In this document: in pieces, positions 7,101 to 10,100 of the stretch
Layout of the letters: each line of letters begins with the position of its first letter
Numbering within the stretch: position 1 is the stretch's first letter
Assembly (NCBI RefSeq): GCF_003018255.1
Contig: NZ_CP027440.1
Strand: one strand, 5' to 3'
DNA length: 64,000 nt
From: Escherichia coli
Lineage (GTDB): Bacteria; Pseudomonadota; Gammaproteobacteria; Enterobacterales; Enterobacteriaceae
Made by a program: the position numbers

Positions 7101-10100
7101 GTTTATTCACTCTATACGCCATCAGAGCAGTTTTATCCGCCTGGCGCACCAATCCCGTGGCCATCAGATACCGTTCCGTCTGGCTATGCCCTGATGCAGG
7201 GGCAGACTTTTGACAAATCTGCATACCCGAAACTTGCAGCCGCTTATCCGTCAGGCGTGATCCCTGATATGCGTGGCTGGACGATTAAGGGCAAACCTGC
7301 CAGTGGTCGGGCCGTATTGTCTCAGGAACAGGACGGCATTAAATCGCACACCCACAGCGCCAGCGCATCCAGTACGGAATTGGGGACGAAAACCACATCG
7401 TCGTTTGATTACGGCACTAAATCCACGAATAACACCGGGGCGCACACGCACAGTGTGAGCGGTACAGCCGCAAGTGCCGGAAACCATACTCATAGTGTCA
7501 CAGGCGCATCAGCAGTCAGCCAGTGGTCACAAAATGGGTCAGTACATAAGGTAGTGTCTGCGGCCAGTGTGAATACAAGTGCTGCAGGAGCGCACACTCA
7601 TAGTGTCAGCGGCACAGCTGCATCTGCAGGTGCTCACGCACATACTGTCGGTATTGGTGCTCATACGCACTCTGTTGCGATTGGCTCACATGGACACACC
7701 ATCACCGTTAACGCTGCTGGTAACGCGGAAAACACCGTCAAAAACATCGCATTTAACTACATTGTGAGGCTTGCATAATGGCATTCAGAATGAGTGAACA
7801 ACCACGGACCATAAAAATTTATAATCTGCTGGCCGGAACTAATGAATTTATTGGTGAAGGTGACGCATATATTCCGCCTCATACAGGTCTGCCAGCAAAC
7901 AGTACCTATATTGCACCGCCAGATATTCCGGCTGGCTTCGTGGCTGTTTTCAACAGTGATGAGGCATCGTGGCATCTCGTTGAAGATCATCGGGGTAAAA
8001 CGGTTTATGACGTGGCTTCCGGCGACGCGTTATTTATTTCTGAACTCGGCTCATTACCGGAAAATGTCACCTGGTTATCCCCGGAAGGGGAGTTTCAGAA
8101 GTGGAACGGCACAGCCTGGGTGAAAGATGCAGAAGCAGAAAAACTATTCCGGATCCGGGAGGCGGAAGAAACAAAAAACAGCCTGATGCAGGCAGCGAAT
8201 GAGCATATTGCGCCACTTCAGGATGCTGTGGATCTGGAGATCGCAACGGAAGAAGAGGCGTCGTTGCTGGCAGCATGGAAGAAGTATCGGGTGTTGCTGA
8301 ACCGTGTTGATACATCAGTAGCACCGGATATTGAGTGGCCTGCTGTCCCTGTTATGGAGTAATCGTTTTGAGATACGCCGCATACACGTTGTATGCAATA
8401 ACGTGCTGCGGCTTGGTAAATTTTAGCTAGTTTCAGCAGGAGACATAAAAAACTTCAATATAAGATTAAGCATCACGTATTGCCAATCTGATTTTTGACT
8501 GATACCAATTGGGGCCTTCTGCAATTATTTCTTCCTCAACATGCATGATGGGATGCATTTCAATTTCAGAGTTTTTGACTTTTAGATCTAGTCCATATTT
8601 TTTTGAAATTTGTAAAACTTCATTTTTGAAATCCTTATCTGCGAAAGGTGAAATCCTTATTTCTTCCAACAGATTGTTAAGAGATACAGGGACTAGTTTT
8701 CCCTTTACAGGTGGAGTGTTAAAGGTATTCTCTTGAAAAATAGCTCTAAACTCTTTTTCGTATTCGAAAGATGGTCTCTTGTTAAAGAATACATCTGATT
8801 CTGGATTGTATTGTTTTATCCAGAAATTTTTGACGTATTTTACGTGTTTTAATTGTAGTTTGTTTAAATTATTATTTTCAAGTTGGCTTTGGAGGTTTTT
8901 TTTCTTTGATTTTATGACAACGCCTTTAGCGGGGTTTTTACAATACAGCTTCCACATAGCTTCAGATTCATGTTCGTTACAATGCCAGCAACTTATATAT
9001 GTCCTCTCGCTTATTTCCTTAAGTGTCTTTAAATTGAATGCCATGAAAGGATCTAAGTCCATGCCGGCACCATGAGTAGCGCATAGTTTTTCCTGTGTCT
9101 CAATGAATTTTTTATAGCCAGTATGTCCCCAAGCAAATTCACCTTCGAATGGATCTTCAAAATTTTTTGCTGAGCAAAAAAATAAAGCATTTTGTTCGAG
9201 TAACATAGAGAATTTCTCTATGTCAAGGTATCGCCATATATACTCAGTGTGCATGATAGCTCCTTGCAATATAACTATTTCTATCTGTTCATTTGTACTT
9301 AAAAAGGATTGAGTAGCCTGAACAGTTCTATCCGTAAATATACCAGATAGAAGAGTTGTACAATAACAAATCCTCCGTATAAGAACCAGCCATAATAGTC
9401 TGGTTCTTAAGGTTTTTTTTTGTTCGAGGGGGGGGGGCTACGATTCGTCCCCATATCGGCGATAAATTAGGCTTGTACCAACGCTTCTGTTTCTGTGAGT
9501 GAAATCTGATAGCGTTTTACTGCCTCAGCAAAGGCGTGCGCGGCATCTGCATTTGATACCATATATTCTTCAGTTACCCCTGTTTGAGAATGGAAAGTAA
9601 TATTTCCATAAATGCAAATAGGGATTTGGTAGTTGTCTTTAAAACGACGGTCTGGTGAGCCATTCTTATTCGTTTTCGCCCATGTATAACCATCTATGCG
9701 TGAGTCACTGGGAACACCTTCTTCCTCATGGAATCTTAGATATTCTGAACTAATTTGTAATTCGCGTAAATCAATCAGAGCGAATGCTCCATCAGCTCGT
9801 GGTATGACTGCAACTCCAGGATAAAGCAAAATATCGTCTCCATTTACATTTTCAAACCTCATCGCACGCCCTGTAAATTGAATGAGATCCGTTGAACTAA
9901 AATCAAAGGTAACTGGGTGACGATTAACAGACCGGGTTGCTAATGTTCTTTCAGCAAACTGGTCTGTAGCTTTATCTGCAGTAATATCCCATTTTTTGAC
10001 ACTCGATTTTAACATATCAAATGCATGGACCATCGCTGCATATGCGCGCTGTGAAGCATCACTGCTCTCGAATGTTATGGCTATTTTTGTGCTGTCTTCC

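Follow-up and report, generated by a model that had tools for sequence, protein, structure and literature searches.

Seven H-x-H motifs near the C-terminus of an Escherichia coli prophage tail fibre protein correspond in position to the iron sites of bacteriophage T4 gp37

The stretch of Escherichia coli chromosomal DNA analysed here (64,000 nucleotides (nt) of contig NZ_CP027440.1, assembly GCF_003018255.1; hereafter the window) carries the tail fibre gene stf, whose product contains seven H-x-H motifs (HxH, x representing any amino acid) in its C-terminal part. By analogy with the solved structure of T4 gp37, the interval very probably encodes the needle-and-tip of a receptor-binding module of the lambda Stf/T4 gp37 type, consisting of a collar, a trimeric needle with histidine-bound metal and a head. 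The feature is an ordinary member of a known family, and all of its elements (the homology between gp37 and Stf, the HxH iron sites, the variable head and the Tfa/gp38 chaperone) have already been described and are textbook phage biology; a passage of PMC3945230 cites, as its references 71-73, the functional and sequence relationship between Stf and gp37.

The stf open reading frame (ORF) spans positions 4857-7778 of the plus strand and is translated into 973 amino acids (aa) from a GTG start, while RefSeq places the start of the product (WP_088167353.1) at the ATG at 4863, resulting in 971 aa. The frame is intact and free of the frameshift of the lambda PaPa type (PMC3945230). The translation contains exactly seven HxH motifs in the C-terminal part (aa 831-947, nt 7347-7697; Table 1), and the last 143 residues hold 15 of the 17 histidines of the protein. 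An earlier note on this DNA had pointed out recurring motifs of this kind at 7330-7700 and quoted three peptide strings from the protein; all seven motifs indeed lie within this interval, the three strings are all present in the translation, and the number of motifs is above chance. Composition-preserving shuffles of the C-terminal 230 aa yielded 0.9 HxH on average and reached seven in 1 of 100,000 cases, while shuffles of the whole Stf averaged 0.28 and never exceeded 4.

As searched with phmmer against the PDB sequences, the last 292 aa of Stf match 2XGF (gp37 residues 799-1026) over Stf aa 746-973 with an E-value of 3.4e-89; query residues 65-292 align with chain residues 15-242, and both sequences reach their C-termini in the match. 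Stf and gp37 share 67.4% identity in a global alignment of 227 columns with two single-residue gaps, one close to aa 815 and the other within the tip. Sequence identity of about 67% to a solved structure implies the same fold, and a trimeric, histidine-lined needle is therefore predicted for Stf. All 14 motif histidines of Stf sit on the histidine pairs of gp37 given in Table 1. The needle of gp37 carries seven coordinated iron atoms along its length, each held by histidines of three subunits; H929 and H931 bind iron, and either substitution H929A or H931A abolishes plaque formation (PMC6957217). The HxH motifs have also been described as the Fe sites elsewhere (PMC11705849). The metal-stabilised trimeric fold that the earlier note had proposed by comparison with gp37 is thus supported, at the level of sequence, by full-length homology to 2XGF and one-to-one mapping of the motifs, and the alignment to T4 gp37 and lambda Stf suggested there places the protein closer to gp37 than had been envisaged.

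The motifs are conserved in homologues, loss of such conservation having been named beforehand as an argument against the proposed fold. A search of 5.8 billion proteins returned 1,855 relatives, and in the best 116 cluster representatives having a complete C-terminus the conservation of every motif histidine is 98% or higher, with seven motifs present in 112 of 117 domains (the 116 representatives plus that of the window). When representatives at 50% identity were searched exhaustively with HMMER, 1,988 matches were obtained at E≤1e-3, and a diverse set of 118 full-length domains (47-96% identity) was compared. Motifs 1, 2, 5, 6 and 7 are essentially invariant in this set down to 47% identity. 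Motif 3 occurs in about 46% of the domains and motif 4 in about 72%; these two, on either side of the head, are the rungs gained or lost across the family. Relatives have between 4 and 10 HxH motifs, most often 7 (five in 33, six in 26, seven in 47 and eight in 13 representatives). It is conceivable, albeit rather unlikely, that the rungs act as a modular ruler, with rung number and head size being co-selected to tune the reach of the tip through the lipopolysaccharide (LPS)/O-antigen layer; if so, the receptor and reach of this Stf variant would differ from those of T4 and lambda.

The region between motifs 3 and 4 shows a different pattern. Identity between Stf and gp37 is 21.2% inside aa 880-912 and 75.3% outside, which is why the receptor-binding tip is placed between these two motifs. 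Per-column conservation among the 118 relatives falls to 0.0-0.2 over aa 880-905, and the insert separating motifs 3 and 4 varies from 9 to 55 aa in length. In T4, the specificity for OmpC/LPS resides in gp37 residues 932-965 (PMC9659904, PMC6957217), and on the basis of the T4 structure aa 880-912 (nt 7494-7592) are the predicted receptor-binding region of Stf. The histidine repeats had previously been described as adjacent to the receptor-binding region; the predicted region is embedded between motifs 3 and 4 rather than lying beside the repeats. The only non-motif histidine in the tip, H897, aligns with Y949 of gp37 and is not conserved in homologues.

As transferred from the T4 structure, three Stf chains, folding with the aid of Tfa, would trimerise and form the collar, from which a six-stranded antiparallel β needle would rise. 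Each of the interlaced chains would ascend through motifs 1-3, turn in the head and descend through motifs 4-7 back to the collar, and the head would contact the host receptor. At each motif, every one of the three chains would contribute two histidines facing the axis, and the resulting six would octahedrally bind one metal ion, so that seven ions per fibre would rivet the thin trimer together at full occupancy; the metal is Fe2+ in T4 and would by analogy be iron in Stf. The rungs and the collar would then serve as the conserved scaffold, and the head as the exchangeable determinant of specificity.

Several points weigh against this arrangement. The trimer and the bound metal are predicted for this Stf from homology, and structure prediction gave models of low confidence. 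The AlphaFold2 monomer of aa 746-973, built on an alignment of 48 sequences, had a predicted local distance difference test score (pLDDT) of 62 and a predicted template modelling score (pTM) of 0.24, and in Foldseek its only significant PDB match was 2xgf_A (E 1e-11, 68% identity) at a template modelling (TM) score of 0.22. A linker-joined pseudo-trimer, consisting of three copies connected by 24-residue GGS linkers and modelled on a tripled alignment of 13 sequences, reached a pLDDT of 35. Low confidence is expected for a thin, interlaced, obligate trimer depending on chaperone and metal, and the models were weighed neither for nor against the proposed fold. Motifs 3 and 4 are missing in a quarter to a half of distant relatives, so single rungs appear, as judged by sequence, to be dispensable for the fold as such. 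Moreover, a different divalent metal could be bound in Stf, or under other conditions.

This last possibility amounts to the same gp37-type needle with a non-iron metal, such as Zn2+ or Ni2+, or a mixture depending on availability, at the HxH sites. Histidine-lined zinc sites are known in related T4 fibre proteins, and T4 gp12 binds zinc via a trimeric HxH site. A solved short tail fibre (9cuy_c, E 1.3e-7) is a further match of the collar region of Stf. The Stf sites, however, are residue-for-residue those of gp37, whose ions are reported as iron (PMC6957217, PMC11705849), and their immediate context G-x-H-x-H-S/T is shared with gp37 as well, leaving a non-iron metal improbable. It has also been hypothesised for fibres bearing HxH motifs that the metal is a functional bait ("Ferrojan/Trojan horse"), the fibre iron being recognised by siderophore receptors of the host to start infection (PMC11705849 and references therein), and strong conservation of the motifs would fit such a role. 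In gp37, however, the histidines of the three chains face the needle axis and the ions are thus buried, the variable head (T4 932-965; PMC6957217, PMC9659904) is where receptor specificity resides, and the known receptors of T4 and Ur-lambda are OmpC and LPS (PMC6957217, PMC12617516). Invariant rungs combined with a hypervariable head fit a scaffold rather than a ligand, and a bait function is considered highly improbable.

The repeats might, finally, be a compositional or low-complexity accident of a fibre rich in Gly, Ser, Ala and Thr and have no specific role, since the composition is indeed biased and one 15-aa string occurs twice (aa 861-875 and 911-925). This origin is refuted by the shuffles described above, by the conservation in homologues of all motif histidines but not of the non-motif H897, and by the exact alignment to the solved gp37 structure, and its probability is close to nil. 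The gp37-type needle stabilised by iron hence remains the preferred reading of the interval.

The coordinates of the module are listed in Table 1. The Pfam scan of Stf found four families, namely phage_tail_N, Phage_fiber_2 (three matches), Collar and Phage_fiber (PF03335). The Collar match (PF07484) covers aa 763-810 at the base of the needle and scores 45.7 bits against a cut-off of 24. The limits of collar and needle were transferred from gp37, where the D10 collar comprises residues 811-881 and 1010-1026 and the D11 needle/tip residues 882-1009 (PMC6957217).

Table 1. Features of the Stf needle-and-tip module and its neighbours (nt, positions in the window; aa, positions in the 973-aa translation).
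Feature	nt	aa	Strand	Remarks
N-terminal tail-attachment domain	4863-5264	3-136	+	PF08400 phage_tail_N, E 8e-72
Collar (D10), first part	7128-7343	758-829	+	Corresponds to gp37 811-881; 2XGF alignment
Needle, ascending arm, motifs 1-3	7344-7493	830-879	+	Corresponds to gp37 H883/885, H915/917, H929/931
HxH motif 1	7347-7355	831-833	+	SHTHS
HxH motif 2	7443-7451	863-865	+	AHTHS
HxH motif 3	7485-7493	877-879	+	NHTHS
Hypervariable tip (head), predicted receptor-binding	7494-7592	880-912	+	Corresponds to gp37 932-965
Needle, descending arm, motifs 4-7	7593-7724	913-956	+	Corresponds to gp37 H966/968, H980/982, H989/991, H998/1000
HxH motif 4	7593-7601	913-915	+	AHTHS
HxH motif 5	7635-7643	927-929	+	AHAHT
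HxH motif 6	7662-7670	936-938	+	AHTHS
HxH motif 7	7689-7697	945-947	+	SHGHT
C-terminal strand back to collar	7725-7775	957-973	+	Corresponds to gp37 1010-1026; near-invariant across family
tfa, tail fibre assembly chaperone, 194 aa	7778-8362		+	PF02413 Caudo_TAP, E 3e-45; PHROG 105

The 15-aa string present twice in the needle lies in the ascending arm (nt 7437-7481) and again in the descending arm (nt 7587-7631). As compared by eye, its two DNA copies differ at several, mostly third-codon, positions, and the repeat looks like a symmetry at the protein level rather than a recent duplication.

The start of tfa overlaps the stop codon of stf (ATAATG). Tfa shares 93% identity with lambda Tfa over all 194 aa and is homologous to T4 gp38 (27% identity, E 4e-19), so that the tfa gene noted earlier as intact beside the fibre is confirmed as full-length. 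Upstream of stf are lom (4199-4798) and an ORF derived from J (2675-4132). The stf-tfa query scores at least 99% in 28 complete E. coli records, and among the matches listed 15 are 100% identical over the full query. The annotated sibling genome NZ_CP027462 has the element, with the same gene order, as a lambdoid prophage located at icd.

The ORF at 2675-4132 is an in-frame fusion of 485 aa, in which the first ~65 aa of tail assembly protein I are followed by the C-terminal portion of tip protein J. By inspection, the fusion arose through a deletion of 2,672 bp at a 10-bp microhomology (CGGATTGCCG; window 2860-2869). All 35 complete E. coli genomes covering the region have undeleted I and J, and the deletion seems specific to the source of the window. 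With I and J fused, the tail tip of this prophage is defective, and its fibre is not likely to function on a tail that the prophage makes itself. In experiments, lambda and the defective prophages Rac and Qin swapped marked DNA across the region of stf-tfa homology (PMC3945230). The module is better seen as a recombination donor, a role that is plausible; the earlier suggestion that it could still be functional or donatable thus fits donation better, given the intact stf-tfa pair and the Rac/Qin precedent, than function on the prophage's own tail, given the I::J deletion.

With window 7050-7778 as the query, DNA similarity to T4-like and other phages sets in at about nt 7130-7145 (query bases 80-94), where the collar starts, and this onset coincides with the boundary at which the module is known to be exchanged horizontally. 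Escherichia phage PhiR29_1 is 98.2% identical to the C-terminal module at the DNA level (query bases 80-729 of the same query). Full-length BLASTP of Stf against PhiR29_1 Stf did not report a C-terminal alignment, so that it is the DNA comparison which supports the match. Three of the 50%-cluster representatives share with Stf an identical variable core from motif 2 to motif 5 (aa 866-926, including the tip). In one of the HMMER homologues (P0121, 938 aa), a partial first copy of the collar and ascending needle, whose three HxH lie at aa 411-459, precedes an unrelated central domain, after which comes a complete seven-motif tip; this protein appears to be a fibre built via recombination within the needle.

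Downstream of tfa, a scan of the gap to the next, convergent gene revealed nothing terminator-like and a single promoter-like site, no more than chance would give. The convergent gene (8466-9269, minus strand) encodes a 267-aa DUF2971 protein in the position of lambda b-region cargo. The protein is similar to the PADLOC candidate defence family PDC-S31 (E 2e-20) as well as to a PHROG of unknown function, and the gene could be a defence or moron gene carried by the prophage. A further gene on the minus strand (9467-10669) encodes a 400-aa protein with an N-terminal DUF4236 domain (PHROG 17982, unknown function), which is intact in the window and annotated as two separate coding sequences (CDS) in NZ_CP027462. 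The window begins in the tape-measure gene, the capsid region lying outside it. In NZ_CP027462.1 (2662000-2690000; locus 1-11109, outside the window), the major capsid gene of the lambdoid prophage is split into two partial pieces by an island, which encodes an integrase, an Abi-like protein, an Icd-like protein, a primase and an SSB in addition to major capsid and head-decoration proteins of its own. This island resembles a capsid-forming phage-inducible island, located inside a potential tail donor.

The value of the present Stf lies in its use as an annotated example, in which the scaffold (collar and seven rungs) and the swappable head (nt 7494-7592) are given exact coordinates. These coordinates serve the grafting of the tip onto lambda- or T4-based particles and the engineering of host range. 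The element also exemplifies a defective prophage that keeps an intact fibre-plus-chaperone cassette available for recombination.

As compared with T4, the last 228 aa of Stf are collinear with gp37, the collar matches, the seven HxH stand at homologous positions, the tip insert is of similar size (33 aa in Stf and 34 aa in gp37), and a C-terminal stretch of 16 aa is identical in both. A chaperone gene of the gp38/Tfa type lies directly downstream of the fibre gene here as well, although the chaperone itself is of the lambda Tfa type (27% identity to gp38). The tip, in contrast, is just 21% identical, and receptor specificity probably differs. The rest of Stf is of the lambda type (phage_tail_N, an Ala/Ser-rich shaft and Phage_fiber_2 repeats) instead of the gp37 shaft, and the host element is a lambdoid prophage remnant, whereas T4 is a virulent myovirus.

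As compared with lambda, the order J-lom-stf-tfa and the family of the N-terminal domain are the same, and the C-terminal domain of Stf is 77% identical to lambda orf-314. Lambda, however, has eight HxH, owing to an extra GAHQHPVVI rung, together with a duplicated SFDYGTKTTG unit and a tip of 45 aa; Stf here is closest to lambda in sequence and yet has the T4-like geometry of seven rungs and a 33-aa head. It is also longer (971-973 aa), Ur-lambda Stf having 774 aa, and its ORF is unbroken, whereas stf is annotated as two CDS (orf-401 and orf-314) in the lambda reference record. For Ur-lambda Stf, structural homology to gp37 and a model docking to OmpC have been reported (PMC12617516).

The "T4- and lambda-based RBP family" of receptor-binding proteins (RBPs) described by Magaziner & Salmond in 2022 is characterised by a distal module of ~215 aa with both flanks conserved, divergence centred on T4 932-965 and an assembly gene directly downstream (PMC9659904). 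Stf fits this family exactly, with nothing essential differing, and is one more tip variant of it.

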